A DNA stretch of 63,779 nt, counting the filler, from Deltaproteobacteria bacterium (GTDB lineage: Bacteria > JAUYMQ01): NCBI GenBank assembly GCA_030698575.1. It is 9 parts of 9 records of this genome, joined end to end, with 100 filler letters (N's around TTAATTAATTAA, not from the genome) between each part and the next. Parts side by side here need not be neighbours in the genome. Positions count along the whole stretch, not along the records: positions 14,754 to 28,527 come from JAUYMQ010000142.1; 8 more parts are not named here. The stretch is one strand, 5' to 3'. Under the pieces are notes generated by a model. It did no database searches, was not told where the DNA came from, and saw only the letters and a program-made list of their open reading frames with translations. Both the position numbers and the translations under genes were made by a program. Below, piece after piece: positions 5,034-57,214 of this stretch; position 1 is the first letter of the stretch; every line of letters begins with the position of its first letter.

Positions 5034-5133
5034 NNNNNNNNNNNNNNNNNNNNNNNNNNNNNNNNNNNNNNNNNNNNTTAATTAATTAANNNNNNNNNNN
5101 NNNNNNNNNNNNNNNNNNNNNNNNNNNNNNNNN
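5034..5133. other. Artificial contig linker (first of eight; others at 11515-11614, 14654-14753, 28528-28627, 31791-31890, 36352-36451, 57114-57213, 60886-60985)
   Basis: Identical N44-TTAATTAATTAA-N44 blocks with stops in all six frames; ORFs are truncated on either side. Confidence 0.98.
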
Positions 5134-11514: not shown

Positions 11515-11614
11515 NNNNNNNNNNNNNNNNNNNNNNNNNNNNNNNNNNNNNNNNNNNNTTAATTAATTAANNNNNNNNNNNNNNNNNNNNNNNNNNNNNN
11601 NNNNNNNNNNNNNN

Positions 11615-14653: not shown

Positions 14654-14753
14654 NNNNNNNNNNNNNNNNNNNNNNNNNNNNNNNNNNNNNNNNNNNNTTA
14701 ATTAATTAANNNNNNNNNNNNNNNNNNNNNNNNNNNNNNNNNNNNNNNNNNNN

Positions 14754-15036
14754 GAATGCCAATGACGATCATCTGCCCGCCGTGCCCGCCGGATGCGAAC
14801 ATCAGGTACTCGTCATGGCGGCCGCTGGGCGTGTAGGTCATCAGCGCCGCGACGATGTCATCGGGGGACAGCTTTCTTTCAGCGGCAACCTCCGAGGCGC
14901 GGCTCGACAGGCCGGCCATCTTCTCGGCCGTCGCCGATTCGGATTTGGGCTTCGGCGGCTCGCAGGCCGAGGCGATGAAGACGGCGCTCAGGATTGCGAG
15001 CGCGCTCATGAAGAAGCTTGGTCGTGGCTTGCGCAT
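14754..15036 (-). CDS. nosZ: Sec-dependent (clade II) nitrous-oxide reductase, N-terminal fragment
   Basis: ERKLSPDDIVAALMTYTPSGRHDEYLMFASGGHGGQMIVIGI matches the clade II NosZ N-terminus; no twin-arginine motif; lipobox-like ASAC. Confidence 0.82.
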
Positions 15037-15177
15037 GTTCTCCCTCCGGAAGAGTCACCTTCCGCCGTCACCCGTGCGGCGGGACGCCCCCCAGGGGGCA
15101 TCGGGTGCAGGAACTATCGTGCGGGCAAAAACCGGGAAACGGGTGATGGAACGAACCCCCAGTTCGCTCCCTCCCGG

Positions 15178-15194
15178 AGCAGGAACCATGCCCA
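15178..15194 (-). promoter_or_regulatory. Possible sigma54 promoter of nosZ
   Basis: Minus strand TGGGCATGGTTCCTGCT fits GG-N10-GC, about 140 bp upstream of the ATG. Confidence 0.4.
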
Positions 15195-15325
15195 TTGCAA
15201 ATAGCGCTTTCAGGACGCGCTTCATGAAAGGAACCCTGTGCAGTATTAGCATGATTACCCGAAGCCGCTCCTTTTGCCGCAAATACTGCGGGGCTCCGGA
15301 AATGGGAAATGGTGAACGTACCCAT

Positions 15326-16336
15326 TTATTCGCGGAGCAGCACGTCGAGAGCGAAGCGAAGGCGCTTCAGCTGCCGGCCGAGCCAGTTGTGGTGGATGTT
15401 GCGGCGGAGGACGACGAGCAGCTTGCGCTCGAGCCGGTAGCGGGTGAGCCGCGCGCGCCGCTCCGGGAGCGGCCGGCCCTGGAAAGCCGCGATTGCATCA
15501 TAGAGCCGCGCCTGCGGATAGCCCCAGACCTCGAGGTCGGCCGGGTCGAGCCGGTCGGTCATCCGCCGCACCTTCTCGAGCTTCGCCGCATCGCCCCCCA
15601 GTGTCTCCGCCCACTTTTCCACCGATGCCGTCATGGGCCGCGTGTGCCGCCCCACCGTGATCGGATCGCCCAGCCCGGCCACCTTCGGCCCCTCCGCCTC
15701 GCCCCCGTATTCGATCGTGCCTGCTTCGAAGGGAAGCCCGACGAAATCGAGTATCCGCTTCATCTCCGCCTCGGGCTCCGACACGAGCGTCTCGTAATTG
15801 AGGTGCACCAGCGGCGCGGGTTTCTCCCGGAGAAATTCCGCGATGGCCGGGACGTACCGCTCCAGGATGGGATTGTGCGCGTGTGCCACGTCGTAATCGT
15901 CGTCGAAGAACGACTCGGCGAAGGAAGCGAACACCGCCGCGGGGTGCCGTGTGAGCACGACGTAGCGCGCGTTCGGATAGAGCGCGGCGAGAAAGGGGAG
16001 CACCAGGGCGTTCGCCGGCGTCTTGTCGAGCAGGAACCGCTTGCCGCTCTTCGCCAGCATTCGCCCGTACAGGTGATCGGTGTAGGCGCGCAGGGCATCG
16101 AGGTAGTCGCGCTCGCCGGCGGGGAGGCCCTCGACGAGCGTGCGCGCGGCCTCGGCGACGATGAAGGGATCGTAGGGCGCCTTGTCCACGCGCCCGTGGT
16201 AGCCGAGGTGGGCGATCGGGGTGATGAGATGAGGCTCGGGGCCGCCGTGTACCGCGGAGTGCGCGCCCAGCATGCGAGCGAGCAGCGTGGTGCCGGATCG
16301 CGGCGCGCCGATGAGAAAAATGAGCCTGTCCTGCAT
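15326..16336 (-). CDS. PAPS-dependent sulfotransferase family protein
   Basis: IGAPRSGTTLL, LDKTP, LTRHPAAVFAS, YETLVSEPE. Confidence 0.9.
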   Translation of the reverse strand: MQDRLIFLIGAPRSGTTLLARMLGAHSAVHGGPEPHLITPIAHLGYHGRVDKAPYDPFIVAEAARTLVEGLPAGERDYLDALRAYTDHLYGRMLAKSGKRFLLDKTPANALVLPFLAALYPNARYVVLTRHPAAVFASFAESFFDDDYDVAHAHNPILERYVPAIAEFLREKPAPLVHLNYETLVSEPEAEMKRILDFVGLPFEAGTIEYGGEAEGPKVAGLGDPITVGRHTRPMTASVEKWAETLGGDAAKLEKVRRMTDRLDPADLEVWGYPQARLYDAIAAFQGRPLPERRARLTRYRLERKLLVVLRRNIHHNWLGRQLKRLRFALDVLLRE

Positions 16337-16399
16337 TCCGCGACCCCCGGGCAGCAGCCGGCGCCCTCTCCCGCCCGGGCGCCCGCAGGCAGGTTAACC

Positions 16400-16567
16400 A
16401 TGCCCGAAAGATTAGGCAATCCGGGCAAGCACGTGGCGGCAAGCGACTGGCTCTTCATCGGCGAGGATGTCACGCCGCCCCAGAACATCCCGGAGCCCGG
16501 CAGCCTGGCCCTGCTCGGGTCCGGCCTGGCCGCGGGCCTGGCCCGCCGCCGGAAGGCGCGCCGCTAG
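16400..16567 (+). CDS. Very short (55 aa) ORF ending in a PEP-CTERM sorting signal; possibly a remnant
   Basis: IPEPGSLALLGSGLAAGLARRRKARR-stop; no signal peptide. Confidence 0.6.
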   Translation: MPERLGNPGKHVAASDWLFIGEDVTPPQNIPEPGSLALLGSGLAAGLARRRKARR

Positions 16568-16764
16568 CGCTGGGCGACAACGTCACGCAAGGGTTCTTTC
16601 AGGAAGGCCGCCCCCACGGGCGGCCTTCCTGCGTTCGTGCGCCGCGACTCGCCCATCCTCGCCGATCTTCAGAATGACATGCGATGCCGGCTTGACCCGG
16701 CTTGACGAGAACGCAGGGCCCCGGTAGCGTGGCCCCGAATTCACAACAACGGGGAGGGGGATCC

Positions 16765-17280
16765 ATGGCGGCACGACGAAAGCGCGCGGCGAAGACCCAC
16801 GCGGGCGGCGCGAAGGCGCCCGCCAGCAAGCGCGGGGGGAACAAGGAGAGGATCATCGAGGCGCTGAACACCGTCCTCGAACTCGAGCTGGCCGGAGTGG
16901 TGCGCTACCTGCACTACTCGCTCATGGTGTTCGGCCACGCGCGCATTCCGATCGTGAAGTGGATGCGGGACGAGGCGACCCAGTCCGCCGATCACGCGGC
17001 GCAGGCAGGTGAGCACGTCACGGCGCTCGGAGGACATCCGTCGCTGAAGATCGGAAAGCTTCTCGAGACCCACAAGCACGATATCAGCCAGATCCTGCTC
17101 GAGGCCCTCGAGCACGAGCGCGAAGGGGTGGCGCAGTACAAGAAACTCCTGTCGCTCGTCCAGGGAAAGGACGTCTGCCTCGAGGAATACGCGCGCAGTC
17201 TCATCCACGAAGAGACCATGCACATCAGCGAGATCGAGAAGATGCTGCGCCGTCCGGGCGATCTCGAGCCCGCCCTCTGA
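16765..17280 (+). CDS. Ferritin-like protein (bacterioferritin family)
   Basis: Strong RBS; LELELAGVVRYLHY, EATQSADHA, LEHE, EETMH diiron-type ligand pattern. Confidence 0.85.
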   Translation: MAARRKRAAKTHAGGAKAPASKRGGNKERIIEALNTVLELELAGVVRYLHYSLMVFGHARIPIVKWMRDEATQSADHAAQAGEHVTALGGHPSLKIGKLLETHKHDISQILLEALEHEREGVAQYKKLLSLVQGKDVCLEEYARSLIHEETMHISEIEKMLRRPGDLEPAL

Positions 17281-17305
17281 CCGCTCGATAACAATCTTTC
17301 CCGGG

Positions 17306-17340
17306 AACCCCGCGTCCGCAGCGCGGGGTTTTTTCTTTTC
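17306..17340 (+). terminator. Rho-independent terminator
   Basis: AACCCCGCG-loop-CGCGGGGTT followed by TTTTCTTTT. Confidence 0.85.
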
Positions 17341-17555
17341 CCCGCTGCTCTGAGCGCGCGCCCCGGGGAAGGGGACACCGCCAGGGGCCGGGAGGGCGCC
17401 GATCACGATATCGTGCGAGGGGGAGCCGCAAACTGTGTCACTTCCGGGGGAACGGGGTGACGCATTCCGGCCCCCGAAGCCCGGCGGGTGAGATAATTCG
17501 CAGTAATTTGAACGCTTTTCCGACAGGGAGGAATAGCTGGGGAAACCCTACGGTT

Positions 17556-17571
17556 CGGCACGCCCCTTGCT
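17556..17571 (+). promoter_or_regulatory. sigma54 (-24/-12) promoter of the GGDEF gene
   Basis: CGGCAC-GCCCC-TTGCT; upstream AT-rich tract and an inverted repeat at 17434-17464. Confidence 0.7.
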
Positions 17572-17713
17572 TGGTCAAGAAGGGAGCACGACGCCCCCGA
17601 TCCGGCCGCGCACGGGACGGATGTCTTTTCTCAAGGCGGGCAGGCCAATCGGCCGAAAGGGCTAGGAGCAGCTTTCCGCAGCCGCAGGGCGGAAGACCAG
17701 CACAAGGCGGTTC

Positions 17714-19027
17714 ATGGAAGATCTCGGAAATCTTGTCGTCGGGCACCTGTCCGAACTCGGACTGCTCGCATTCGTCTCGCTGACGTTCGGTTACTTGCTC
17801 GGCCGGGGCTCGAGTTCGAAGCAGGCGGGCGGACGCATCCGCGATCTCGAGAAAATTGCGGCGCGCAGCGAGATGAGCTCGCAGGAGCACCAGCGCTCGG
17901 CGCAGGATCTTTACGAGCGCGCCGAGCGCGCCGAGCAGACGGTTCGCAAGCTCGAGCGCTCGCTCATCGAGCTGCCCGAGGTGGCCCAGCGACTCTCCTC
18001 CGTGCACGAGCTCCAGGAGATCCCGCACCGTGCCCTCGAGCTGGTCAAGGAACTGTTCGATCCGACCTATGCGGTGTTCTTCAAAACGCGCCGGGGAATG
18101 CTCGTGGCCCAGTCGGTGCTGGGCGCCTCTCCTTACAAGCTCGGGCAGAAGATCAGGCCGGGTGAGGGGATCGTGGGTCTGGCGGCCGTGAAGCAGCTCC
18201 CCTTCACGCCTGTGGATCTCCGGTTCGAAACGGCGCAGGTCAAGCATCAGATGGCCGCAAGCGGCGTGGGCGAGACCGACTTTTCCCTCTGCCTGCCGGT
18301 GGTGGCCGAGCATCTGACCATCGGCGTCATCATGGTGGGCCCCATGTTGCGGGAAATTCCGAACGCGCGCGACGTGGGACGCACGGTGGCGCTGCTCACC
18401 TCGGTGGCCATGATGAGCGCCGCCGTCCTGAAGCAGCAGAAGTTGCTCGCGAAGACCGACGGCCTCACCGGGCTCCTGAACCGGGTCCACATCGTGAAGC
18501 GCGCCTCGGAGATCATCGATGCCGAGGGCGACACGCCGAGGACGCTCTCCGTTTTCATTTTCGACATCGACCACTTCAAGCACTACAACGACACGAACGG
18601 CCATCTCCCCGGTGACGATCTTCTCAGACACCTTGCGGCCCTACTGAAGGAAACGGTGCGCGAGGGAGAGAGCGTGGGCCGGTACGGCGGAGAAGAGTTC
18701 TTGATGGTGATGCCCGATACCGACCGGGAGGCGGCGTTTCAGGCCGCCGAGAGAATCCGCCAGCTCATCGAAAAGCAGGACTTCGCCTTCGGCGACAAGC
18801 AGCCCGGCGGCCGCATCACGGTGAGCGGCGGCGTGGCCACCTGGCCGGCGGACGCGGAGGCGATCGAGCCGCTCCTCAAGCGCGCCGACGACGCGCTTTA
18901 CAAGGCGAAGCGGGCGGGCCGGAACCGCGTGTTCACCTACACCCCGCAGGCCCTCGGCAGCGACGATCCCTACGATCCCGCGACGGGGGAGTTCCACTCT
19001 CTTCTGGTCGAAGACGGCGACGAATAG
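17714..19027 (+). CDS. Membrane-anchored GAF + GGDEF diguanylate cyclase
   Basis: N-terminal TM, coiled coil, GEGIVG GAF motif, TDGLTGLLN, DIDHFKHYNDTNGH, RYGGEEF, ADDALYKAK. Confidence 0.92.
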   Translation: MEDLGNLVVGHLSELGLLAFVSLTFGYLLGRGSSSKQAGGRIRDLEKIAARSEMSSQEHQRSAQDLYERAERAEQTVRKLERSLIELPEVAQRLSSVHELQEIPHRALELVKELFDPTYAVFFKTRRGMLVAQSVLGASPYKLGQKIRPGEGIVGLAAVKQLPFTPVDLRFETAQVKHQMAASGVGETDFSLCLPVVAEHLTIGVIMVGPMLREIPNARDVGRTVALLTSVAMMSAAVLKQQKLLAKTDGLTGLLNRVHIVKRASEIIDAEGDTPRTLSVFIFDIDHFKHYNDTNGHLPGDDLLRHLAALLKETVREGESVGRYGGEEFLMVMPDTDREAAFQAAERIRQLIEKQDFAFGDKQPGGRITVSGGVATWPADAEAIEPLLKRADDALYKAKRAGRNRVFTYTPQALGSDDPYDPATGEFHSLLVEDGDE

Positions 19028-19180
19028 CCGCGCACGCGACCTTACTCCGACCCTTCAAGCCGGTAGAGCCAGATCACGTTCCCCACGCGGGCGATGGAAC
19101 GGCGGCGTTGCAGCCCGCGCCCTCCTCAGCCGTGCCTCTCCCACCGCTTCCCCCCAGGGTTCTCGGGCCAGGAGCGAATG

Positions 19181-19213
19181 CTTCAATAACGGGGTCTGAC
19201 CCCTTTATTTTAG
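19181..19213 (+). repeat. REP-like 33-bp palindrome, solo copy
   Basis: CTTCAATAACGGGGTC-T-GACCCCTTTATTTTAG; homologous to the copies at 25554 and 26656. Confidence 0.8.
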
Positions 19214-20397
19214 CGGGGCTGAGGCTGGGTGAGGCAGTGGAGCGAGCCGAGCCCCAGGATGAGATCCACCGAATGAACCCCGATCACTTCCCGCCCCGGG
19301 AACAGCCGCCCCAGCGTGTCGAGGGCGAGATGATCGCTGCGATCGTTGAAGGTGGGCACCAGGACGACCCGATTCCCGATGTAGAAGTTCGCGTAGCTCG
19401 CCGGCAGGCGGTAGTCCTCGAAGTGGATCGGCTCGGGCATCGGAAGCGTCACGACGCGGAAGGCCCGCCCCCGCCCATCCCGCGCCTCGCGCAGGCGCGC
19501 CAGGTTGTCGGCCAGCGGAGCGTGATTCTCGTCACGCCGGTTCCCCTCCCGCGCCACCACGATCGTCTCCGGATCGACGAACCGCGCGATGTCGTCCACG
19601 TGTCCATGCGTGTCGTCGCCCGCGACCCCCCGCCCCAGCCAGAGGATCTGCTTCACCCCCAGGTGCTCGCGGAAGACCTTCTCGAGATCGGCCCGTGAGA
19701 GATGGGGATTTCGCGCCTGCACCTTCGAGAGGTGACACTCCTCGGTGGTGATCATCGTGCCCTGCCCGTTCACCTCGATGCTTCCCCCCTCCAGCACGAC
19801 CGGCTTGCCGCCCGCCTCGGGGACGATGCGCTCCATCTCCAGCACGCGCGCGAGCTTCGCGTTCACCGCGTTGTCGAGGCGCCAGTTCGAGTACCTGGCC
19901 CATGCGTTGAACTTCCAGTCCGTCATGACGATCTCCCGGCCACGGCGAACGAAGATGGGGCCGAAATCGCGCATCCAGGAGCGGTTGGTCGGCACCACGT
20001 AGAAGCTGACCGCGCTCTCGTCGACCCGCGCCTTCGCGAGCATGCGCCGCACCCGCTTGCGCATGGCGGTGTCCTTCACCAGGATGCGCACCGGCTCGCT
20101 TCGCGCCAGGAGCCGCGCAATCTCGACGTAGACCCATTGGATGGCGGCGAGCTTCCCGGGCCAGTCGGCGGCGTGGTGGGGCCAGGCGATCCAGGTCGCC
20201 GCGTGGGGCTCGAACTCGGCGGGCATGCGGTAGCGGGGAGGCGCCTCTCGGGGGAGCGCGGGCTGTCGCGCGCCGGAGCGGGGACGCGACGGAGAGCCCG
20301 GCGATCGCTCCTTCGGTGCGGGCTTCTTCGCAGGGGCAGACTGCGGCGAGAACGCCCCGCGGGATTGGGCGCCACGCCGGGAGCGTCGTCGGCTCAC
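19210..20397 (-). CDS. aguA: Agmatine deiminase family protein
   Basis: RMPAEFEPH, WMRDFGP, LEGGSI, DDTHGHVD, PASYANFY, GSLHCLTQ; GTG start overlaps the aguB stop (alternative start 20226). Confidence 0.9.
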   Translation of the reverse strand: MSRRRSRRGAQSRGAFSPQSAPAKKPAPKERSPGSPSRPRSGARQPALPREAPPRYRMPAEFEPHAATWIAWPHHAADWPGKLAAIQWVYVEIARLLARSEPVRILVKDTAMRKRVRRMLAKARVDESAVSFYVVPTNRSWMRDFGPIFVRRGREIVMTDWKFNAWARYSNWRLDNAVNAKLARVLEMERIVPEAGGKPVVLEGGSIEVNGQGTMITTEECHLSKVQARNPHLSRADLEKVFREHLGVKQILWLGRGVAGDDTHGHVDDIARFVDPETIVVAREGNRRDENHAPLADNLARLREARDGRGRAFRVVTLPMPEPIHFEDYRLPASYANFYIGNRVVLVPTFNDRSDHLALDTLGRLFPGREVIGVHSVDLILGLGSLHCLTQPQPR

Positions 20398-21284
20398 GGG
20401 TCGATGAATCGCCGGGTAATGGGCGCGTAGGCGTCCACGCGCCGGTCTCGAAGGAAGGGCCAGTCGCGGCGCACGCTCTCCTGCAGCGCGGGATCGCACT
20501 CGGCGAGCAGCACCGTCTCGGACTCGGCGGCCGCCGCAATGAGCCGCCCGAAGGGATCCGCCACGAAGGAGTGGCCGAAGAATTCGATGCCGTCGCCGGC
20601 GCCGGGCTTCTCGTAGCCGACACGGTTCACGGCCGCGACGTACACGCCGTTCGCGATGGCGTGCCCCCGCTGCACCGTCTGCCAGGCGTCGACCTGGGCG
20701 CGACCCTCGGCCTCTTTCTCGGCCGGGTGCCAGCCGATGGCCGAGGGGTAGAGAAGCACGTGCGCTCCCTGTAGCGCCGTGAGCCGCGCCGCCTCGGGGT
20801 ACCACTGGTCCCAGCAGATGAGCAGCCCGATGCGCGCCACCCGGGTGTCGAAGCAGCGGAAACCCAGATCACCCGGCGTGAAGTAGAACTTCTCGTGGTA
20901 AAGCGGATCATCCGGGATGTGCATCTTCCGGTAGTGCCCGAGATAGCTCCCGTCGGTGTCGATCACCGCGGCGCTGTTGTGATAGATGCCCGGCGCCCGC
21001 CGCTCGAACAGTGGCGCTACAATCACCACCTCGAGCGACTTCGCCAGCTTTCCGAGCGCCTCAGTCGTCGGCCCGGGGACGGGCTCGGCAAGATCGAAGT
21101 GCGCGGGGTCCTCGCTCTGGCAGAAGTACGGAGCAAGGAACAGCTCCTGCATGCACACGATCTGCGCTCCCTCGCGGGCCGCCTCTTCGATGCGCGACGA
21201 CGCCAGGGCGAGGTTCTCCGCCGGATCGTTGGTGCAGGCCATCTGGACGAGGCCGAGGGTGAATTTGCTCGCGGGAACCGTCAT
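20394..21284 (-). CDS. aguB: N-carbamoylputrescine amidase (carbon-nitrogen hydrolase)
   Basis: QELF, YRKMHIPDDP, EKFYFTPGDLGF, ICWDQWYPE; paired with agmatine deiminase. Confidence 0.88.
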   Translation of the reverse strand: MTVPASKFTLGLVQMACTNDPAENLALASSRIEEAAREGAQIVCMQELFLAPYFCQSEDPAHFDLAEPVPGPTTEALGKLAKSLEVVIVAPLFERRAPGIYHNSAAVIDTDGSYLGHYRKMHIPDDPLYHEKFYFTPGDLGFRCFDTRVARIGLLICWDQWYPEAARLTALQGAHVLLYPSAIGWHPAEKEAEGRAQVDAWQTVQRGHAIANGVYVAAVNRVGYEKPGAGDGIEFFGHSFVADPFGRLIAAAAESETVLLAECDPALQESVRRDWPFLRDRRVDAYAPITRRFIDP

Positions 21285-21334
21285 GCGACGGGAGGGTAGA
21301 GAGGGGCCGGGGGGATGTCAATCGCGCAGCACAT

Positions 21335-22777
21335 CTAGATCCATTCGCGCTGCGCAACCGTCGGCTCTGCGCAGCAGTACCAGGGCTCGCTCATGCGCGG
21401 CGCGGGAGCGGCGCGGAACGCATCCGGACCCGGAGGAGGCGCATCATGAAGACCGGCCCGCGTGTGTGCGCGCTCCCAGATGCGCCCGAAGAGTTCCCGC
21501 CGCGGTGCATCCGGCGCGGCCTGCGCCAGCGCCTCCAGCTCGGCCTGCAGCGCATCGACGCGGGCGTCGGGGTTGCGCCAGGGGTGGCAGAGCGCCTGCG
21601 CGTCGAGCGGGCCGGCGAGGGACTTCACCTCGTCGAGATCGAGAAGCCGCGAGCCCGAAGGCAGGAGCAGCCTGATCGCGAGGTGCACCGGCGCGACGCG
21701 CTCGGCGATTCCGAGCGCCGCCACGTCCCGCAGGAGATCGAGGTAGCCCTCGAGCGTCGTCCAGGGCGTGAAGGGAACGAAGGTGGGCGCGAGCGGGAGC
21801 CCGGCCTCCTCGCAGATCGCCACCGCGTGGTGGAAGCCGGCGCGCGTGTGCCCCTTCAGGAGCCGCGCGAGCACACGGTCGTCGACCGACTCTGCCGCCG
21901 AGGTCACGAAGAGGCATCCGGTTTCCTTCAGGAGCGCGGGAGCGCCGGGCGTGTCGAGCAGATGCGAGATCTTGATGGTCACGTCGTAGGTGATGTCGGG
22001 AAAGGCGGCCTTGAGCGCCCGGATGATCGCGAAGGCGTGCTTCGGGCCGTTCAGAAAATCCGGATCGCCGAACGTGACGTGCCGCGCGCCGGCCGCCACC
22101 TGCTGGGCGACGTCCGCTATCACCACGTCGGGGGGCACCACGCGGAACCGCCCGTCGTAGACCGGCACCACGGGGCAGTGCCGGCAGCGATGCTTGCACC
22201 CGCGGCTTGCCTCCACGTAGCCCGCCAGGCGCTCCGTTCCATCCGGGAGCACGAGCTTCGCGTAGCGATCGAGCGGGGGGAGACCAGTGCGGTCGGGCAC
22301 GCGGAAGCGCTGCCGCGCCGTAGAGATGCGCGGCTCGGGTTGCGCTGACTCCAGTTCCGGCCCGCCGGTCGCCGGAGCCGGGCCGTTCCTCTCAAGACTC
22401 TGGGCAAGACGCTCGGCGAGCGCGAGGAGCCCCGCTTCGAACTCCCCGCCGAGGACCGTCCTGACGCCGAGCTGGCGCAGGTAGGGCTCGTTCATCGGGG
22501 CATAGAGGCCGTAGGCCGCGAGGTGCGCCGCGGGGTTCAGCGACCTGAGGCGCGGCAGCAGGCTGGCCGCCAGGCGGGTGGCGGTGTGCATGGGGAGATA
22601 GAGGGCCACGAGATCGGCGTCGCGAACGGCTGTCTCGTCGAGAGCGTCGATACTCAGATCGAGCAATTGAACGTCGTGCCTGTGGGGCGCTTCGGCGTCA
22701 CGGAGCCAGGCCGCGGGCTCGGCCAGGCCGAAGGGCGGCCGCCCCAGCTCGTATGTGGAGAGCAGCAGGATCTTCAA
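21335..22777 (-). CDS. Radical SAM protein with C-terminal CCAEP tail (CUAEP/CCAEP-tail family, Cys form)
   Basis: TTG start after GAGG; EASRGCKHRCRHC (CxxxCxxC); TFGDPDF; ends EPWYCCAEPT (TGC TGC codons). Confidence 0.85.
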   Translation of the reverse strand: MKILLLSTYELGRPPFGLAEPAAWLRDAEAPHRHDVQLLDLSIDALDETAVRDADLVALYLPMHTATRLAASLLPRLRSLNPAAHLAAYGLYAPMNEPYLRQLGVRTVLGGEFEAGLLALAERLAQSLERNGPAPATGGPELESAQPEPRISTARQRFRVPDRTGLPPLDRYAKLVLPDGTERLAGYVEASRGCKHRCRHCPVVPVYDGRFRVVPPDVVIADVAQQVAAGARHVTFGDPDFLNGPKHAFAIIRALKAAFPDITYDVTIKISHLLDTPGAPALLKETGCLFVTSAAESVDDRVLARLLKGHTRAGFHHAVAICEEAGLPLAPTFVPFTPWTTLEGYLDLLRDVAALGIAERVAPVHLAIRLLLPSGSRLLDLDEVKSLAGPLDAQALCHPWRNPDARVDALQAELEALAQAAPDAPRRELFGRIWERAHTRAGLHDAPPPGPDAFRAAPAPRMSEPWYCCAEPTVAQREWI

Positions 22778-22802
22778 GGACGCCTCACCGCGCGCGGGCT
22801 TC

Positions 22803-23516
22803 TCATCCGGGATGCGCGGCGCGCATCTCGTCGTACATCCCCTGCATCGCGCGATTGGCGGCGGAGGTTTGCTCGAGCGCCGCGACGAGCGTCGCCGCGC
22901 CCGCCGCAGGTACGACGCCCAGAAGCTTCGCGTCGTCGAGATCGGTGAAGGTGCGCATGCCGGCGCATCCGAACGAAAGCACGGGGCGTCCGTCGGCCAG
23001 CGCCACGGGGAGCGCGGCGCAGGAGGGGCGCCCGAAGGCCGGCATCGATGCCGGGCGGTCCCAGCGCGCATCACCCGAACCTTCCTGGAACAGCATGGCC
23101 TGCCGCGCGTCGAGCCAGAGCAGGATGAGATCGGGCGTGTCGGGGAAGGCAGCAAGGGGGCCGTAGAGCACGCCCGCCTTCGTCTTTCCCACGCGCGGGA
23201 TGCGCGCGGGTTCGGGCGGCGCGAGGTAGCCCGCCCCGGTCATGCGCGTGATGACGGCTTCGAGGTTCCGCTCTCCCTCGGCGCCGAGGGTGAAACCGCT
23301 GGTCAGCGCGCCGACCGGGCAGTTCATGTGATCCTCGGCGGAGGCGAAGAAGACGCTACTTTCGGCCCGCCGCCAGAAGGTGCAGGCAGAGGGGACGGGT
23401 CCGCCGTCCCAGCGGGGCGTGCCCGGCGGCGGCTCGTCGAGATAGGCGAGCGCCACGGGAGGCGACGCGAGGCCGAGGAGGTGGGTGAGCGAGCCGGCGA
23501 TCTGCTTCTGCGACAT
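22803..23516 (-). CDS. DUF169-like protein
   Basis: LGLASPPVALAY, SACTFW, CPVGA, PDLILL, GRPSCA, SFGCAGMRTFT; GGAGG RBS. Confidence 0.75.
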   Translation of the reverse strand: MSQKQIAGSLTHLLGLASPPVALAYLDEPPPGTPRWDGGPVPSACTFWRRAESSVFFASAEDHMNCPVGALTSGFTLGAEGERNLEAVITRMTGAGYLAPPEPARIPRVGKTKAGVLYGPLAAFPDTPDLILLWLDARQAMLFQEGSGDARWDRPASMPAFGRPSCAALPVALADGRPVLSFGCAGMRTFTDLDDAKLLGVVPAAGAATLVAALEQTSAANRAMQGMYDEMRAAHPG

Positions 23517-23600
23517 CGGTGGGCCTCCGTGATTGGCGCGGGGTCGTCCCCCGGTTTGATTCCGAGGTTGAACCGCCTATTCTTGCCTCGAGAGGCAAGG

Positions 23601-24839
23601 ATGAATCGGGTCTTACTGCTGCTTCCGACGACCACCTATCGCGCGCGGGATTTTCTCGATGCGGCGCGGCACCTGGGTGTCGAGGTGGTCGTCGGCACCG
23701 AGGGACATCAGGCGCTCGAGAAGGTCGCGCCGGGGGGCACGATCACGCTCGACTTCTCAGACACCGCCGCCGCCACCGCGGCCATCGTCGAATTCAGCAG
23801 GACGCACCCGCTAGAGGCCATCGTGGGGACCGACGACGAGACGGCCCTGCTTGCGACACAAGCTGCCACGGCGCTGGGGCTGCGCGCAAACCCGCTCGGG
23901 GCCGTGGCGCTCACGCGCAACAAGTACCGGCTGCGCCGGGCGCTGGCGGAAGCCGGCCTCCCCTCCCCGCCCTACAAACTCCTCACGATCACCGACGACC
24001 CCCGGGCTGCCGCCGGAGAGGTGCCTTTCCCCTGCGTGCTGAAGCCCACTTTCCTTTCGGCGAGCCGCGGGGTCATCCGGGCCGACGACGCCGACGCCTT
24101 CGATGCCGCCTTCTACTGCATCGCGGGTCTCCTTGCCGATCCCGACGTGCGGCGGCGAGGCGGCGACGCCTCCGGGGAGATCCTCGTCGAGGGATACATC
24201 CCGGGCGAGGAGTACGCCGTCGAGGGGATGCTCGAGAAGGGAGGGTTCCGGCTTCTCGCGTTGTTCGACAAGCCCGACCCCCTCGAGGGGCCCCACTTCG
24301 AGGAGACGATCTATGTGACGCCCTCGCGCGCGACGAAAGAGCGCCAGTCGATGATCCTCGAGAAGATGCGCATGGCGCTCGTGACGGTGGGCCTGCGCGA
24401 GGGCCCGGTGCACGCCGAGCTGCGCTGCAACGACGAGGGCGCCTTCATTCTGGAGATCGCGGCCCGTTCGATCGGCGGCCGCTGCGCGCGCGTGCTGCGG
24501 TTCGGGGCGGGGCTGTCGCTCGAGGAGCTGATCCTCCGCCACGCGATCGGCAAAGAGGTCGCGGACCTCGAGCGCCAACCCGGCGCGGCGGGGGTCATGA
24601 TGATCCCGATCCCGCAGGCGGGCATCCTGAAAGAGGTGAAAAACCTCACGGCTGCGCGGGCCGTCAGGGGGATCGAGGAAATCGACATCGCGATCGCGCG
24701 GGGGAAGCCGCTCACGCCGCTCCCCGAGGGCAATCGCTACCTCGGGTTCATCTTCGCCCGCGGCGCCGCGCCCGAGGAGGTCGAGGCCGCGTTGCGGGAG
24801 GCGCACCGTCGGCTCGAGATCGTCGTGGCGCCGGCCTGA
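23601..24839 (+). CDS. ATP-grasp domain ligase
   Basis: RNKYRLR, PCVLKP, SASRGVIR, VEGYIPGEEYAVEG, HAELR, LEIAARSIGG. Confidence 0.88.
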   Translation: MNRVLLLLPTTTYRARDFLDAARHLGVEVVVGTEGHQALEKVAPGGTITLDFSDTAAATAAIVEFSRTHPLEAIVGTDDETALLATQAATALGLRANPLGAVALTRNKYRLRRALAEAGLPSPPYKLLTITDDPRAAAGEVPFPCVLKPTFLSASRGVIRADDADAFDAAFYCIAGLLADPDVRRRGGDASGEILVEGYIPGEEYAVEGMLEKGGFRLLALFDKPDPLEGPHFEETIYVTPSRATKERQSMILEKMRMALVTVGLREGPVHAELRCNDEGAFILEIAARSIGGRCARVLRFGAGLSLEELILRHAIGKEVADLERQPGAAGVMMIPIPQAGILKEVKNLTAARAVRGIEEIDIAIARGKPLTPLPEGNRYLGFIFARGAAPEEVEAALREAHRRLEIVVAPA

Positions 24840-24867
24840 GCCGGGTCTCGCTTCGCCCGGAAATGCG

Positions 24868-24890
24868 AACGCCCCCGGAAGGGGGCGTTT
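24868..24890. terminator. Hairpin between convergent genes (probable terminator)
   Basis: AACGCCCCC-GGAA-GGGGGCGTT(T). Confidence 0.65.
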
Positions 24891-24911
24891 CTGCGGGCGG
24901 GCGCGCGGCGC

Positions 24912-25514
24912 CTACTTCCCGGCCTGGTAGTAAGGATTGGAGCCTGACCCGTGGTCGGTGCTGTCGAGCACGGCGATGATCTCGGGTATCTCGGCCTTGA
25001 GTGTTTCCTCGATCCCCTGCTTCAACGTGACGTCGGCCATGCCGCAGCCCTGGCAGCCGCCGCCCATCCGGATGTACACGTTCCCATCCTTGACGCCGAG
25101 CAGCGTGATGCTCCCGCCGTGGCTTGCGACGCCGGGGTTGATGCGATCTTCGATGACCTTCTGCACGCGCATGACGAGGGGATCGGAAGCGGCGGGCGGC
25201 TGATTGGGGTTCTCGAACTTGAAGCCGCTGCTCGACATGCCGCTGACGAAGTCGAGCGTGGCGCCTTGTAGGCGCGGGACGGTTTCCTTGTCGAGATAGA
25301 CCATCACGCCGGCGGCATCGACGACCTCGTCGTCTTCGCTCTTCTCGTCCTGGCTCACCAGGCGAAGATCGTACTTCCAGGCGGCCACACCCTCTTCGGT
25401 GACCGTCACGCGCACCGCCGTATCGAGCCGGTTCTGTGACTCCTGGATCTCCGTGATCTTTTCCCGGGCTCCATCCGTCAGCGTCAGAATTTCTCCGTCG
25501 ATTTCGTCTGCCAT
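24912..25514 (-). CDS. nfuA: Fe-S biogenesis protein NfuA (IscA-like + NifU domains)
   Basis: LTLTDGA, GATLDF, GFKFENPN, INPGVASHGG, GGGCQGCG, DSTDH. Confidence 0.92.
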   Translation of the reverse strand: MADEIDGEILTLTDGAREKITEIQESQNRLDTAVRVTVTEEGVAAWKYDLRLVSQDEKSEDDEVVDAAGVMVYLDKETVPRLQGATLDFVSGMSSSGFKFENPNQPPAASDPLVMRVQKVIEDRINPGVASHGGSITLLGVKDGNVYIRMGGGCQGCGMADVTLKQGIEETLKAEIPEIIAVLDSTDHGSGSNPYYQAGK

Positions 25515-25553
25515 GGCCCCATTGTAACCGATCTCCTTCCTATGGCCAGAGGC

Positions 25554-25586
25554 CTTAAATAATGGGGTCAGACCCCTTTATTTAAG
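25554..25586 (-). repeat. REP-like 33-bp palindrome at the 3' end of the RAYT gene
   Basis: CTTAAATAATGGGGTC-A-GACCCCTTTATTTAAG; 16-bp arms with 1 mismatch; contains the RAYT stop codon. Confidence 0.85.
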
Positions 25587-26506
25587 CCCATGCATTGAAG
25601 AATTCGCGCGCCCTCGCCGCTCCTGGCAAGCTTTCCGTGAATTTGCGACACGCGCGGTTGAGACACCCCGCACCGCTCGGCGATCTCGGCGAGTGGCAGC
25701 TTCGCCCAATGCCGCAGAAGGAAAACGGCCGCCTGAAATGCATCCCTGTTCGATCGATCGAGCACCGACGCGGCATCCAGTTCGAACGCGCTTGCAACCG
25801 CACCGAGAACATCGCCCGCGTCGGGCGGCTCGCCTTCGGTCCAGGGAATCAGGGGCGCAAGTCGCTGTTCGCGCGCGGCCGATCCGGGCATTATCATTGT
25901 CGAACGCCTGCCACCCAGTCGCGCCGTTTTCCGTAGCTCCTTCAGCGGCGATCTCGCGCCGATCCCGCCCACGACTAAACGCTCGTAGGCCTCACTGCCG
26001 TTCTCGCCCGGCCCTTCGAATTGACCAAGAACCCAATCCGTAGTCAGCCATGAAGGCCGTCGCGCCTTCCCGACCGTCGCCCTGTAGCTGCTCCATGCCC
26101 ACCGTGCCGGGAACTCCGCCAACCCCGCCCGGACCGGGTTGAGAACGATATAGCGGCTCAGTTCCAGCAGATAAGCGTCCCGATCAACGAGCTTGCCCTT
26201 GAATCGACCCTGGAACAAATGCCCCACGCGCTGGTGGCGCCAATTGAACCACTGCGTATACAGCCCGTTCAATTGCTGCATGCCTTTGGAAAGATTCGCC
26301 AACGGCGTTTCCAGAAGAAGGTGAAAGTGATTGGGCATCAGGCAGTAGGCATGGCAAAGCCAATCCTGGTCGCGGACTGCATCGCCGAGATGTTTCAGGA
26401 AGCGCCGGTAATCCCCGCTGGAAAGGAACGTCTTCTGACGTGCGTTTCCGCGTGAAGTAACGTGGTAGATCGCTCCGTCGAACTGCACCCGCGGTTTTCT
26501 TGGCAT
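25568..26506 (-). CDS. REP-associated tyrosine (HUH/Y1) transposase with C-terminal HTH
   Basis: YHVTSRGN, YCLMPNHFHLL (HUH), GHLFQGRFK, RYIVLNPVRAGL, WSSY; C-terminal LAEIAERCGVSQPRVSQ. Confidence 0.9.
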   Translation of the reverse strand: MPRKPRVQFDGAIYHVTSRGNARQKTFLSSGDYRRFLKHLGDAVRDQDWLCHAYCLMPNHFHLLLETPLANLSKGMQQLNGLYTQWFNWRHQRVGHLFQGRFKGKLVDRDAYLLELSRYIVLNPVRAGLAEFPARWAWSSYRATVGKARRPSWLTTDWVLGQFEGPGENGSEAYERLVVGGIGARSPLKELRKTARLGGRRSTMIMPGSAAREQRLAPLIPWTEGEPPDAGDVLGAVASAFELDAASVLDRSNRDAFQAAVFLLRHWAKLPLAEIAERCGVSQPRVSQIHGKLARSGEGARILQCMGLNKGV

Positions 26507-26655
26507 TGTTGCCTCCATGCAAGAACGGGCGAAGCAAGCCGGTGCCCTCCGTGCACGGGCACGGACCGGTGCGAGATTCGCCCGGTTGTCCTCATTCGAC
26601 AGGGAGAACGACGGTGAAACAGGGAGTTGCGGCTTGGGGAAATCCGTCCCGGGAG

Positions 26656-26688
26656 CTTAAGTAAAGGGGTCTGACCCCACTATTTTAG
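26656..26688 (+). repeat. REP-like 33-bp palindrome upstream of the RAYT gene
   Basis: CTTAAGTAAAGGGGTC-T-GACCCCACTATTTTAG. Confidence 0.85.
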
Positions 26689-27836
26689 CGGCCGGGGAGG
26701 CCGGGGGAGAGGGCCTTGAAGCGGTAGAGGGGGTGGGGGGCGGTCTTGGCGACGTCGGATTTCGATTTGAACATGATGCGGTTCAGCTGGCTGTCGGTCA
26801 CGTAGATCCAGCCGTCGGGGCCAAACGAAAGGCCGTCGGGCCAGACGAGCCGCTCGTCGCGGATGAGCGTCTCGCCCTCGCGGTTCGGCCGCAGCACCGC
26901 GATCGCGCGGTCCTCGATCGCAGTCAGGTAGAGGTTCCCCTCGCGGTCGATCGTGAGCCCGTCGGAAAGCGGTTTGGGCGCGAACGCCTCGATCTCGAGC
27001 CCCAGCTGCGTGTCGTCCATGTCCTCGTCGAGCAGCGCCGACGTCGGTATCCGGTACATCGTCGTGCCCGACATCGGCCCGTAGTAAAGCGTCTCGCCGT
27101 CGAGCGACAGCACGATCGAGTCGACGGCCACGCGCAGCGGCATCACGCCGAAAAGCGTCACCTTCTCGCCCTCCACGATCATGTCGACCGGCTCCTCCTT
27201 CACCGAATGGTGATCCTGCAGCACGCGGCGCACGCGCCCTTCTCCAATGTCGTAAACGATGATCGCCGGATTGAAATTGAAGTTCGCCGTGTCGGCGATG
27301 TAGGCAACGCCGCGATCGGCGTCGACCGAGAGATCGTTCAGGTAGGAGCCCCAGCCCGCCTCGTCGCGCCTGAAGTTATGGCGGTGCGCCAGCTTGCCCG
27401 TCGCGATGTCGAAGGCGATGAGCGCGGGCGTGCCGAAGCCGTTCTTCCCGTGATCGAGCACCCAGAGCCGTCCCCGGCTGTCGAGCACGATGCCCTGGGG
27501 TGTCTGGAAGCCGTCGTCCTTCGACTGCCATGCTTCATCGGGGTAGGGGACCGACGTGCCGTCCGGCAGGATCTCGGCGACCTTCACCTTCGGGCCGGCG
27601 AGCGGGTGGTAGGTGATGAAGATGCGCCCATCGGCCGACACGGCCACATTGCCAAGCGGGGCGTCGAGGGCGGCGACCAGCTCGAGGGCCTCGGGGCCCT
27701 CCGCGAGGGGCGCACCCAGACGGTAGTCGGGCCGGGGCGCGACATCGGCGCCGCAGCCGGCGAGCAGAGCCAGGCCGGCCAGCGCGGCGGTGAGCAAGAG
27801 CGCTGGTAGAAAGGGGGACTGTCCCGCTTTCCCCAT
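26685..27836 (-). CDS. Major royal jelly/yellow-like (SMP-30-like beta-propeller) lipoprotein
   Basis: Lipobox LLAGC; GNVAVSADGRIF, GRLWVLDHG, LNDLSVD, AYIAD, SDGL, WPDGL. Confidence 0.8.
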   Translation of the reverse strand: MGKAGQSPFLPALLLTAALAGLALLAGCGADVAPRPDYRLGAPLAEGPEALELVAALDAPLGNVAVSADGRIFITYHPLAGPKVKVAEILPDGTSVPYPDEAWQSKDDGFQTPQGIVLDSRGRLWVLDHGKNGFGTPALIAFDIATGKLAHRHNFRRDEAGWGSYLNDLSVDADRGVAYIADTANFNFNPAIIVYDIGEGRVRRVLQDHHSVKEEPVDMIVEGEKVTLFGVMPLRVAVDSIVLSLDGETLYYGPMSGTTMYRIPTSALLDEDMDDTQLGLEIEAFAPKPLSDGLTIDREGNLYLTAIEDRAIAVLRPNREGETLIRDERLVWPDGLSFGPDGWIYVTDSQLNRIMFKSKSDVAKTAPHPLYRFKALSPGLPGR

Positions 27837-27895
27837 CAGGTTCCCCCCTCCGGTCGCGTGTTCGGCCCCCCGGAAAGGGGGACCGTCCCACCTAT
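27809..27895. repeat. Two copies of a second short palindrome family GAAAGGGGGAC-N-GTCCC
   Basis: 27809-27831 GAAAGGGGGAC-T-GTCCCGCTTTC and 27873-27895 GAAAGGGGGAC-C-GTCCCACCTAT. Confidence 0.65.
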
Positions 27896-28485
27896 TTCAC
27901 TTGTCGCTTCGCGGATTTCGGGCGCCGGGCCTTGGCGCCGTCGGGCTTCTTCTTACGCGGCTTGTCGAGCGCGGCCAGGATATCGGCGGTGTCGGCGTGG
28001 TCGCCGGCCTCTTTACTCCTCTGCGTGAAGAGCACCTTGCCCGCGGGCGTGATGACGAATACCCCACCCTGCTGCCACGGATCGCCCTTCACCGAGGTCT
28101 GCACGTTCCCACTGCTGAGCGCGCGCAGCCCATGCAGCATCGACCGCGGCCCGAGCGAGCTGATGAGCCCGCGCCGCAGCCCCGCCGCCCGATAGGCCTC
28201 GAGGGCCGGGTCGGTGAGCAGGGGGAATGTGATCTTCTGCTTCTCCTTGAAATCGCGGGCCTGCTCGGGCCGCCCGTTGCCGACGACCACCAGCTCCGCG
28301 CCGCGGTCGTGTATCTGTTTCAACTCGCCCCGCAGATCGGCCACCTGCTCCCGGCAGAAGAGGCAGCCGAAGTGCCGGATGAACGCCAGGACAACCGGCT
28401 TCTCCCCCCACATGTCCCCCAGCCGCACTTTCTTGCCCGACGGGTCGAGGAGATCGATGCCCGCCAGCTTGGTCGCAACGCTCAT
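27892..28485 (-). CDS. Peroxiredoxin-like protein (AhpC/TSA-2, PRXL2-like)
   Basis: LAFIRHFGCLFCRE, LLTDP, GDPWQQGGVFV, AGDHA. Confidence 0.85.
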   Translation of the reverse strand: MSVATKLAGIDLLDPSGKKVRLGDMWGEKPVVLAFIRHFGCLFCREQVADLRGELKQIHDRGAELVVVGNGRPEQARDFKEKQKITFPLLTDPALEAYRAAGLRRGLISSLGPRSMLHGLRALSSGNVQTSVKGDPWQQGGVFVITPAGKVLFTQRSKEAGDHADTADILAALDKPRKKKPDGAKARRPKSAKRQVK

Positions 28486-28627
28486 GGTCCATCCTCCCGG
28501 CCCCAGTATAGACCATAAGCCCCCACGNNNNNNNNNNNNNNNNNNNNNNNNNNNNNNNNNNNNNNNNNNNNTTAATTAATTAANNNNNNNNNNNNNNNNN
28601 NNNNNNNNNNNNNNNNNNNNNNNNNNN

Positions 28628-31790: not shown

Positions 31791-31892
31791 NNNNNNNNNN
31801 NNNNNNNNNNNNNNNNNNNNNNNNNNNNNNNNNNTTAATTAATTAANNNNNNNNNNNNNNNNNNNNNNNNNNNNNNNNNNNNNNNNNNNNGC

Positions 31893-36351: not shown

Positions 36352-36453
36352 NNNNNNNNNNNNNNNNNNNNNNNNNNNNNNNNNNNNNNNNNNNNTTAAT
36401 TAATTAANNNNNNNNNNNNNNNNNNNNNNNNNNNNNNNNNNNNNNNNNNNNAG

Positions 36454-57112: not shown

Positions 57113-57214
57113 CNNNNNNNNNNNNNNNNNNNNNNNNNNNNNNNNNNNNNNNNNNNNTTAATTAATTAANNNNNNNNNNNNNNNNNNNNNNNNNNNNNNN
57201 NNNNNNNNNNNNNC

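Follow-up and report, generated by a model that had tools for sequence, protein, structure and literature searches.

The genome of a Deltaproteobacteria bacterium (GenBank assembly GCA_030698575.1) contains a gene cluster in which a radical S-adenosylmethionine (SAM) enzyme with a C-terminal CCAEP tail is found together with an ATP-grasp ligase and an iron-sulfur (Fe-S) carrier of the NfuA type. The cluster has six genes and lies inside an unbroken block (positions 14754-28527, from record JAUYMQ010000142.1) of the window, by which we mean the whole stretch of 63,779 nucleotides that was analyzed. Comparison between genomes shows that the core of a module is formed by a ligase of the L-amino-acid ligase (LAL) type and an iron or Fe-S trafficking protein, the latter being NfuA here and an IscA/ErpA-like protein, Nfu or YggX elsewhere, and that these are joined by a front-end enzyme that can be swapped. 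To judge from its genes, the version present in the window is the one with the Cys-Cys-tail radical SAM enzyme; the module as a whole is widespread and undescribed. It is very probable that the module is real and that its parts are functionally linked. The members of the module in the window are the following.

21335-22756, minus strand: CCAEP-tail radical SAM enzyme, 473 amino acids, TTG start (NF040546, 578.9 bits)
23601-24839, plus strand: LAL-type ATP-grasp ligase, 412 amino acids (domains ATP-grasp_4, LAL_C2 and ATPgrasp_N)
24912-25514, minus strand: NfuA-type Fe-S carrier (Fe-S_biosyn and NifU domains)

A first-pass annotation of this DNA had described these three genes together with aguA, aguB and a DUF169 gene, and had drawn the radical SAM enzyme, the DUF169 protein and the ligase into a candidate biosynthetic system. 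Searches with Pfam and NCBIfam models find all six genes in place.

Linkage of the radical SAM enzyme, the ligase and Fe-S carriers

How general is this arrangement? Scanning species genomes gave 490 confirmed relatives of the radical SAM enzyme, of which the best 80 (53-61% identity) were kept, and these are the 80 radical SAM loci counted below. They span Acidobacteriota, several classes of Pseudomonadota, Dormibacterota, Methylomirabilota, Chloroflexota and Latescibacterota, all taxon names in this work being taken from record titles. Four loci labelled as other phyla (L014, L023, L056 and L063) have the gene order of Acidobacteriota or group with them in the tree; they may be mis-binned and are not counted as independent. 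Neighbours were searched by tblastn with the window proteins, genes were called with our own ad hoc codon-usage caller for G+C-rich DNA, and orthologues were assigned by E-value and identity gaps that we chose ourselves.

An orthologue of the ligase (38-57% identity) is found by tblastn in 63 of the 80 loci. Among the 78 loci with a called radical SAM gene, the two are immediate neighbours on one strand in 55, the ligase is at most three genes away in 7 others, and in 16 it is not nearby. The same association is seen at the level of genomes, sampled as 151 from Acidobacteriota and 300 scored from the gamma class; most are metagenome bins, so that absences are weak evidence. The radical SAM gene is present in 23 of the Acidobacteriota genomes, and 20 of the 23 matches carry the in-frame TGA of a selenocysteine (Sec) form. 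The ligase (at E <= 1e-80) is present in 27 of the 151, comprising 22 of the 23 radical SAM-positive genomes as against 5 of the 128 negative ones, one of the five being unpublished (Fisher p = 1e-20, with no correction for phylogeny). In the gamma class the radical SAM enzyme is rarer, with 13 examples in 300 genomes, all of the Cys form (11 score over the cut-off and 2 are cut by contig ends). The ligase is present in 54 of the 300, divided between 11 of 13 positive and 43 of 287 negative genomes (p = 1.5e-7, again taking no account of phylogeny). In ten genomes searched whose radical SAM locus lacks the ligase, six have it elsewhere in the genome and four have none. Thus the radical SAM enzyme is nearly always accompanied by the ligase, and the converse is false. 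The association of the two enzymes in unrelated genomes, on which the first-pass proposal partly depended, is supported by these counts.

The third partner is a consistent one. A gene for iron or Fe-S trafficking (YggX PF04362, IscA-like, Nfu or NfuA), confirmed with Pfam and NCBIfam models, lies within three genes of the radical SAM gene in 54 of 78 loci. The linkage of radical SAM enzyme, ATP-grasp ligase and Fe-S carrier recurs in many lineages, and the arrangement is therefore more than chance. Chance adjacency of the three was considered and is ruled out by the linkage counts. No conserved small open reading frame (ORF) accompanies the pair of radical SAM and ligase genes in the loci examined.

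In many Acidobacteriota (e.g. L010, L024 and L028) the radical SAM and ligase genes have a divergent aconitase gene on one side and YggX on the other, followed by a HAD-like gene, glucose-6-phosphate dehydrogenase and a glucokinase-like gene, these flanking names, aconitase included, having been read from sequence. Within the lineage this order of genes is conserved.

We found no paper tying this radical SAM enzyme, this ligase and Fe-S carriers together, supplementary neighbourhood tables being outside the coverage. Searches for ATP-grasp with YggX and for radical SAM with selenoprotein and ATP-grasp likewise returned no paper, and nothing related was found for radical SAM, ATP-grasp and 3-amino-3-carboxypropyl.

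The ligase and its carriers

The firmest pair in the module is the ligase and the carrier. A YggX gene, an IscA-like gene or both flank five of six further ligase genes that are remote from the radical SAM gene. In 20 gamma-class genomes without this radical SAM enzyme, 19 of the ligase genes have an IscA-like or Nfu-domain gene at their flank and/or YggX nearby, and the twentieth is at a contig end. An Nfu-domain gene is found by tblastn in 5 of the 80 radical SAM loci. NfuA itself adjoins the ligase in a further six Acidobacteriota loci in which the radical SAM gene is elsewhere or was not found (L082, L087, L089, L091, L094 and L096), in convergent or divergent orientation; the convergent form is that of the window, where the two genes run stop to stop with 72 nt between them. 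Because the carriers are linked to the ligase with or without the radical SAM enzyme, NfuA, which the first-pass annotation had left as either partner or bystander, is a partner, and mainly of the ligase. A tree of the ligases contains a clade linked to YggX and another linked to Nfu, NfuA or IscA-like genes, and the window ligase falls in the second.

The window NfuA comprises a degenerate A-type domain and a NifU domain with a CxxC motif, read as GGGCQGCG. It scores 136.3 against the equivalog model TIGR03341, under the cut-off of 269.35, with both domains present.

The ATP-grasp ligase is the most widely conserved enzyme of the module. Its family has at least 7997 members at E <= 1e-40, with Sulfuricaulis among the organisms named. 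In the sources these are named only 'ATP-grasp domain-containing protein' or 'biotin carboxylase', and no curated NCBIfam claims the window protein (the best, PRK02186, gives 120 bits against a cut-off of 625). Its domains place it in the LAL type, with ATP-grasp_4 at 104.4, LAL_C2 at 57.3 and ATPgrasp_N at 42.3 bits, all over their cut-offs. The closest solved chain is the L-amino acid ligase BL00235 (3vot, E 6.4e-34), followed by BacD (3vmm and others, E 1.7e-17); these are its best sequence matches of solved structure, and share all three Pfam domains with it. Ligation of free amino acids is predicted for the window enzyme. To our knowledge, constant Fe-S carrier neighbours have not been reported for known ligases of this type, and in this respect the window ligase differs from them.

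One locus (L004) has a second copy of the radical SAM gene with YggX and IscA-like genes of its own and no ligase. About 1.4 kb downstream of this copy is a fusion of monothiol glutaredoxin, HesB-like and rhodanese domains (L004:12738-13742, plus strand).

The CCAEP-tail radical SAM enzyme

The radical SAM enzyme belongs to the family NF040546, the CUAEP/CCAEP-tail radical SAM (seleno)proteins, as had been noted at first pass. It scores 578.9 bits against a cut-off of 500, is aligned over model positions 6-465 of 468, and contains the motifs CKHRCRHC (187-194) and WYCCAEP (459-465) expected of the family. The protein ends in ...SEPWYCCAEPTVAQREWI, its C-terminal ending being also given as WYCCAEPTVAQREWI. 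An N-terminal Rossmann part resembling a B12 domain is followed by the radical SAM core and the C-terminal tail. In an alignment of 41 sequences the invariant cysteines are C187, C191 and C194 of the cluster motif, C281, C461 and C/U462. The family therefore has exactly three conserved Cys or Sec outside the cluster motif, at 281, 461 and 462. Beyond the tail motif the sequence AEPTxxQ(L/F)xx and a hydrophobic C-terminus are conserved.

Among 89 relatives the tail is CU in 50 and CC in 38, and is lost at a contig end in one. The tree indicates that the Cys form has arisen several times, and the window protein lies in a clade of Cys forms with proteobacterial sequences. The only relevant preprint found to mention CUAEP describes the family as uncharacterized and the Cys-Sec dipeptide as rare, found otherwise in proteins of organometallic chemistry; the family thus stands, as the first-pass annotation had it, with no assigned reaction.

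An AlphaFold2 model of the enzyme has a mean predicted local distance difference test (pLDDT) score of 90.2, falling to 78-79 in the tail. The nearest solved folds are AprD4, TsrM, MgmA, OxsB and MiaB, with MiaB, RimO and LipA among the fold matches. The model therefore resembles both the radical SAM enzymes with a B12-type N-terminal domain (AprD4, TsrM, MgmA and OxsB) and the methylthiotransferases.

The enzyme may be compared with ArsL of arsinothricin biosynthesis. The ArsL family (NF040542) is the second best match to the window enzyme, aligned over its residues 2-406 with 256.8 bits (E 4e-76), and the third best family gives only 33.8 bits. The earlier pointer to ArsL is supported: it is the closest characterized relative. 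The two have in common the CxxxCxxC core, a C-terminal tail with vicinal cysteines and three conserved cysteines outside the cluster motif. The ArsL preprints report that ArsL cleaves SAM to give an aminocarboxypropyl radical that is transferred to As(III), and that three tail cysteines bind As(III) rather than a cluster; of its six conserved cysteines, all three extra ones are in the tail. There are also differences. The score of the window enzyme is under the ArsL cut-off of 450; its tail is WYC(C/U)AEP where that of ArsL is RCCLKC (CCxxC), so that the third tail Cys is absent; and the third conserved non-cluster cysteine is C281 of the core. Among the genes identified at 14754-28527 there is no ArsM or ars context, the partners being instead the ATP-grasp ligase and the Fe-S carrier.

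Alternative front-end enzymes

Many ligase genes are found without the CUAEP-type radical SAM enzyme, and two other enzymes occur in its place. The first is another radical SAM enzyme of about 350 amino acids, which adjoins the ligase in 9 of 29 gene-called loci of gamma type and is directly downstream in 7. These loci (L121:3533-4597, plus strand, and L105, L108, L109, L111, L112, L114, L115 and L120) place it beside IscA-like and ATP-grasp genes. It passes the AmmeMemoRadiSam radical SAM model narrowly (232.3 bits, cut-off 220) and resembles the PflA-type activases. Orthologues of full length are present in 35 of 301 gamma-class genomes at 62-100% identity, separated in a bimodal distribution from ordinary AmrS at 33-39%. 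All 35 genomes carry the ligase and none carries a CUAEP-type enzyme. The two radical SAM types are together in none of the 54 ligase-positive gamma-class genomes (one-sided p = 8e-7 for exclusion, not corrected for phylogeny). The second type is extended at its C-terminal end, where the motifs GCDC and KCxxxCCG are invariant, and a vicinal Cys-Cys thus lies close to the C-terminus in this type as well. It was not found in the 151 Acidobacteriota genomes, in which the best match (43% identity) is at the level of ordinary AmrS.

Eight of the 54 ligase-positive gamma-class genomes have neither radical SAM type. In one of these a gene on the minus strand (L106:6386-8131) overlaps the start of the ligase gene and encodes a pyridoxal phosphate (PLP) enzyme of Cys/Met metabolism with a C-terminal NifU domain. 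The PLP part (PF01053) most resembles cystathionine gamma-synthase, matching that model at 377.1 bits (cut-off 513), and is below all equivalog cut-offs; the NCBI names within the family include O-acetylhomoserine aminocarboxypropyltransferase. In a metagenome scan for this PLP-Nfu fusion that returned 80 loci, the match reaches the Nfu domain in 22 (L133-L152, L155 and L159). The ligase is directly adjacent in 11 of these 22, two of the remaining 11 ending too soon to tell, as against none of the 58 in which the PLP enzyme stands alone. In 13 further genomes with either the ligase or the radical SAM enzyme, and not both, only stand-alone PLP enzymes were found. A gamma-glutamyltranspeptidase gene is convergent on the ligase gene in L106.

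In a tree of 110 ligases those of the three front-ends interleave, and the ligases of L005-L007, which are linked to the CUAEP-type enzyme, nest in a clade linked to the second type with local supports of 0.95-1.0. We read the three front-ends as probable non-orthologous replacements at one step of a pathway. The ligase does not depend on the CUAEP-type enzyme, as the 43 of 287 gamma-class genomes that have the ligase and lack this enzyme make plain, and it pairs with one of several front-ends.

A possible pathway

What might the module make? The reading that best fits the data is that the radical SAM enzyme makes a non-standard amino acid and the ATP-grasp enzyme then ligates it, as was suggested at first pass; we infer this by analogy, with indirect support from the PLP-Nfu fusion. 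The radical SAM enzyme would cleave SAM in the manner of ArsL, to a 3-amino-3-carboxypropyl radical. Cys281 and the flexible tail, EPWYC-C/U-AEP, would present a soft atom, for which sulfur or selenium is the most plausible choice, either donated by the Fe-S carrier or withdrawn from it. This would yield a gamma-substituted 2-aminobutyrate, similar to homocysteine or selenohomocysteine, and the PLP enzyme could reach the same type of product by gamma-replacement. The ATP-grasp enzyme would join this product to a second amino acid or an amine, and NfuA would supply the cluster of the radical SAM enzyme or its source of sulfur.

The chemical logic comes in part from NfuA, which is known to rebuild the sacrificial auxiliary cluster of lipoyl synthase, and in part from the PLP enzyme. 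The O-acetylhomoserine aminocarboxypropyl transfer of its family is the same group transfer as that of ArsL, made onto sulfur. Members of PF01053 move the aminocarboxypropyl skeleton to sulfur or selenium nucleophiles, and it is an Nfu-fused member that takes the place of the radical SAM enzyme beside the same ligase. The likeness has its limits, since PLP chemistry is not radical chemistry and the window has no such enzyme.

The order of events has a precedent in pyrrolysine biosynthesis, where the radical SAM enzyme PylB makes a non-proteinogenic amino acid that the ATP-grasp ligase PylC joins to another amino acid. There is no specific relation in sequence, PylB being a generic radical SAM match in fold at rank 39. 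PylC is of the D-Ala-D-Ala-ligase type with no LAL_C2 domain, unlike the window ligase, and the window has no equivalent of PylD.

A number of points tell against this reading. Two adjacent cysteines and one in the core would serve just as well to hold a cluster, a metal or a metalloid. The second radical SAM type is PflA-like, of a group that normally makes the 5'-deoxyadenosyl radical, and if the two radical SAM enzymes are equivalent then chemistry in the style of ArsL becomes less certain. The ligase occurs with no known front-end in some gamma-class genomes and in five from Acidobacteriota, perhaps as a result of incomplete assemblies. In eight gamma-class genomes the radical SAM gene stands alone, and a search there for a conserved neighbour gave none. 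The closest relatives of the window enzyme (L001-L003, 60-61% identity), which are among the four mentioned above, are in genomes with no ATP-grasp ligase anywhere. The co-occurrence statistics ignore shared ancestry. Finally, for every member the product, the substrate and the pattern of SAM cleavage are argued by analogy.

In L001-L003 (e.g. L002:8211-13035) the gene order is a linalool-dehydratase-like (Ldi-like) gene, the radical SAM gene, a small protein and an O-methyltransferase. The enzyme may serve another purpose in this context, which brings to mind the pairing of ArsL with ArsM.

Taken as a whole, chemistry included, our explanation is tentative. Its specific chemistry, an ArsL-like transfer to sulfur or selenium followed by ligation, is possible but doubtful. 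A wider proposal, and an unlikely one as it stands, is that all versions of the module serve a single, widespread and unnamed pathway. Its product would be a sulfur or selenium amino acid, or else a small thiol or selenol resembling a dipeptide, acting alongside Fe-S trafficking proteins, and three unrelated enzymes that replace one another could each form the key C-S or C-Se bond. On this view the CUAEP/CCAEP family would join ArsL as the second canonical radical SAM family to use the aminocarboxypropyl radical, and would be the first to form C-S or C-Se bonds in this way. If confirmed, the proposed chemistry of the module would extend the non-canonical radical SAM chemistry of the ArsL type, account for the retention of a Cys-Sec tail by soil Acidobacteriota, and suggest a possible new small thiol or selenol tied to iron-sulfur homeostasis in common soil, groundwater and sulfur-oxidizing bacteria. 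New in this work are the asymmetry between ligase and radical SAM enzyme, the existence of alternative front-ends, the finding of a second tail with Cys-Cys, and the standing of DUF169 and of aguAB, discussed below. Several orphan families are thereby brought into one testable pathway, with the likely chemistry narrowed to gamma-substituted aminobutyrates of sulfur or selenium.

Alternative explanations

The alternative that survives best, although unlikely, is sulfur insertion. Here the radical SAM enzyme would make a 5'-deoxyadenosyl radical and insert sulfur into an amino acid or dipeptide. In the way of LipA, BioB and MiaB, the sulfur would be drawn from a sacrificial cluster, with Cys281 and the tail to hold it, and NfuA, IscA or YggX would rebuild the cluster after each turnover; the ATP-grasp enzyme would first make a dipeptide substrate. 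NfuA rebuilds the sacrificial auxiliary cluster of lipoyl synthase, and this known case of a radical SAM enzyme functionally tied to NfuA fits the steady linkage to Fe-S carriers seen here. The ligase is more widespread than either radical SAM type, as a ligase-first order would have it, and the second radical SAM type is PflA-like and has five extra C-terminal cysteines, sufficient for an auxiliary cluster. The presence of MiaB, RimO and LipA among the fold matches of the window enzyme points the same way. However, with only three conserved non-cluster Cys or Sec, two of them adjacent, the cluster site would be unusual, and Sec is a rare ligand. The nearest relative is ArsL, whose tail was shown not to bind a cluster. 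LipA by contrast has a full site for its auxiliary cluster and no vicinal Cys tail, and is related to the window enzyme no further than the superfamily. The PLP-Nfu alternative, moreover, is ill suited to radical sulfur insertion.

A role in the supply or repair of Fe-S clusters is distinctly unlikely. In such a module SAM, methionine, homocysteine or cysteine would be the source from which the front-ends mobilize sulfur, with Nfu or IscA as scaffold and YggX bringing iron, while the ATP-grasp enzyme would provide an ATP-dependent step or a peptide that ligates the cluster. The most constant neighbours of the ligase are indeed IscA-like, Nfu and YggX proteins, the PLP-Nfu fusion resembles a sulfur donor joined to its scaffold, one locus has the fusion of glutaredoxin, HesB and rhodanese, and ferritin-like and AhpC genes lie near the cluster in the window. 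Yet the ATP-grasp enzyme is a typical L-amino-acid ligase both by its domains and by its closest structure, and we know of no ATP-grasp enzyme in Fe-S assembly. SAM would be a costly source of sulfur, and the module, being patchy in distribution (27 of 151 and 54 of 300 genomes), is no general housekeeping system.

Modification of a protein is very unlikely. The radical SAM enzyme and the ligase would then act on a protein such as the Fe-S carrier or the tail of the radical SAM enzyme itself, in the manner of PflA-type activases and of RimK/LysX-type ligases. ATP-grasp enzymes that add amino acids to the C-termini of proteins are known, the second radical SAM type falls in an activase-like group that acts on proteins, and the tail AEPTxxQ(L/F)xx with its hydrophobic C-terminus is conserved. 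The carriers, however, vary with lineage between YggX, IscA-like, NfuA and Nfu, which leaves no common target; at its C-terminus the ligase carries the LAL domain typical of ligases that act on free amino acids, and the pair lacks a conserved small ORF beside it.

The first-pass annotation had proposed that the tail binds a metalloid or other substrate. In a metalloid version of this idea the Cys-Cys tail would bind arsenite or selenite, the radical SAM enzyme would make an amino acid like arsinothricin, and coupling of this by the ligase, to a peptide or else to the putrescine of AguAB, would give a Trojan-horse antimetabolite. Dipeptide antibiotics, bacilysin among them, are made by ligases of this type, and BacD is among the sequence matches of the window ligase. 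Although ArsL is the closest characterized family, with a tail reported to bind As(III), and the Cys-Sec dipeptide is otherwise known from organometallic proteins, this version is highly improbable: aguAB is in none of 80 loci, no ars, sel or resistance gene was identified at 14754-28527, leaving the arsenic or selenium reading of the tail with no such gene in the surrounding 14 kb, related loci lie among housekeeping genes (aconitase, glucose-6-phosphate dehydrogenase, thiamine and haem) rather than in secondary-metabolite clusters, and the enzyme falls below the cut-off of the ArsL hidden Markov model and lacks its tail motif.

DUF169, aguAB and the surroundings of the cluster

The remaining features of the cluster are the following.

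19210-20235, minus strand: aguA-like gene of the agmatine deiminase family (PF04371, 390 bits)
20394-21284, minus strand: aguB-like carbon-nitrogen hydrolase (CN_hydrolase, 207.9)
22803-23516, minus strand: DUF169 protein, 237 amino acids (PF02596, 64 bits)
23517-23600: divergent intergenic region, 84 bp (read from the sequence)

The 84-bp divergent gap is exactly as first described. On the minus strand the short gaps that had been described are there (46 nt between DUF169 and the radical SAM gene, 50 nt between the latter and aguB, and about 158 nt between aguB and aguA), but the gene overlaps are not.

DUF169 matches its family at 64 bits (gathering threshold 27) over profile positions 2-207 of 209. 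The four spaced cysteines noted at first pass (C45, C66, C166 and C184) are invariant in a 40-sequence alignment, as is H63. The protein is not a core member of the module as had been supposed. It lies directly upstream of the radical SAM gene in the window, is adjacent in 4 of 80 radical SAM loci by tblastn, and adjoins that gene in L021, L040, L041, L051 and L098. Ten of the 151 Acidobacteriota genomes have it, eight of these (8 of the 23 positive for the radical SAM enzyme) with the radical SAM enzyme (p = 3e-6, uncorrected), and it adjoins the radical SAM gene in one only, being mostly unlinked. An AlphaFold2 model (pLDDT 94.2) found no relative of solved fold: Foldseek against the Protein Data Bank (PDB) gave a best E of 0.63, a wide VIA-align search a best Z of 4.9 on helical stretches only, and a sequence search of the PDB no match at E <= 1. 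This is not proof of a new fold. A predicted complex with the radical SAM enzyme has an ipSAE of 0.00, which has no bearing on whether the two bind. The papers found on DUF169 contain no functional data. Fusions of DUF169 to a 4Fe-4S ferredoxin occur in Bacillota and Actinomycetota in the ESM Atlas (clusters of 61 and 58 members) and hint at a redox role. DUF169 is probably an optional redox or metal-binding helper.

The aguA and aguB genes are mere neighbours. Homologues of neither are found by tblastn in any of the 80 radical SAM loci, and because they are never linked the proposed role in supplying putrescine is unsupported. Their membership of the Pfam families holds and their exact function is putative: aguA scores 278.9 against the equivalog TIGR03380 (cut-off 381.8) and aguB 317.5 against TIGR03381 (cut-off 410.25), both under the cut-off.

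Within the divergent region a perfect palindrome of 18 nt, CTTGCCTCGAGAGGCAAG, lies at 23582-23599, ending two bases 5' of the start codon of the ligase gene and taking in the putative ribosome-binding site. Folded as RNA, positions 23540-23620 give z = -2.0. The palindrome could be an operator or a translational hairpin.

The genes identified at 14754-28527 encode sulfotransferase, ferritin-like, GGDEF, AguA, AguB, radical SAM, DUF169, ATP-grasp, NfuA, Y1 transposase, MRJP-like and AhpC proteins; none of these is an ars, sel or resistance gene, the ORF at 14754-15009 and the rest of the window not having been scanned. The filler between the joined parts of the window (5034-5133, 11515-11614, 14654-14753, 28528-28627, 31791-31890, 36352-36451, 57114-57213 and 60886-60985) consists in each case of two runs of 44 N with 12 bases between them. 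A ferritin-like gene of the Dps type (16765-17280, plus strand) and an AhpC/TSA peroxiredoxin gene (27892-28485, minus strand) lie within 3 kb of the cluster, one on either side. They match a theme of iron and oxidative stress, which may be coincidence.

A second palindrome, GGGGTCWGACCCC, occurs in three copies (19191-19203, 25564-25576 and 26666-26678), each followed by a T-rich run, against a chance mean of 0.14; three copies were reached in no shuffle. Two of them flank a gene on the minus strand (25568-26518) with an IS200-like Y1 transposase domain, and together these look like a repetitive extragenic palindromic (REP) element with its REP-associated transposase. The third copy is just past aguA, so that the six-gene cluster is bracketed by GGGGTCWGACCCC repeats.

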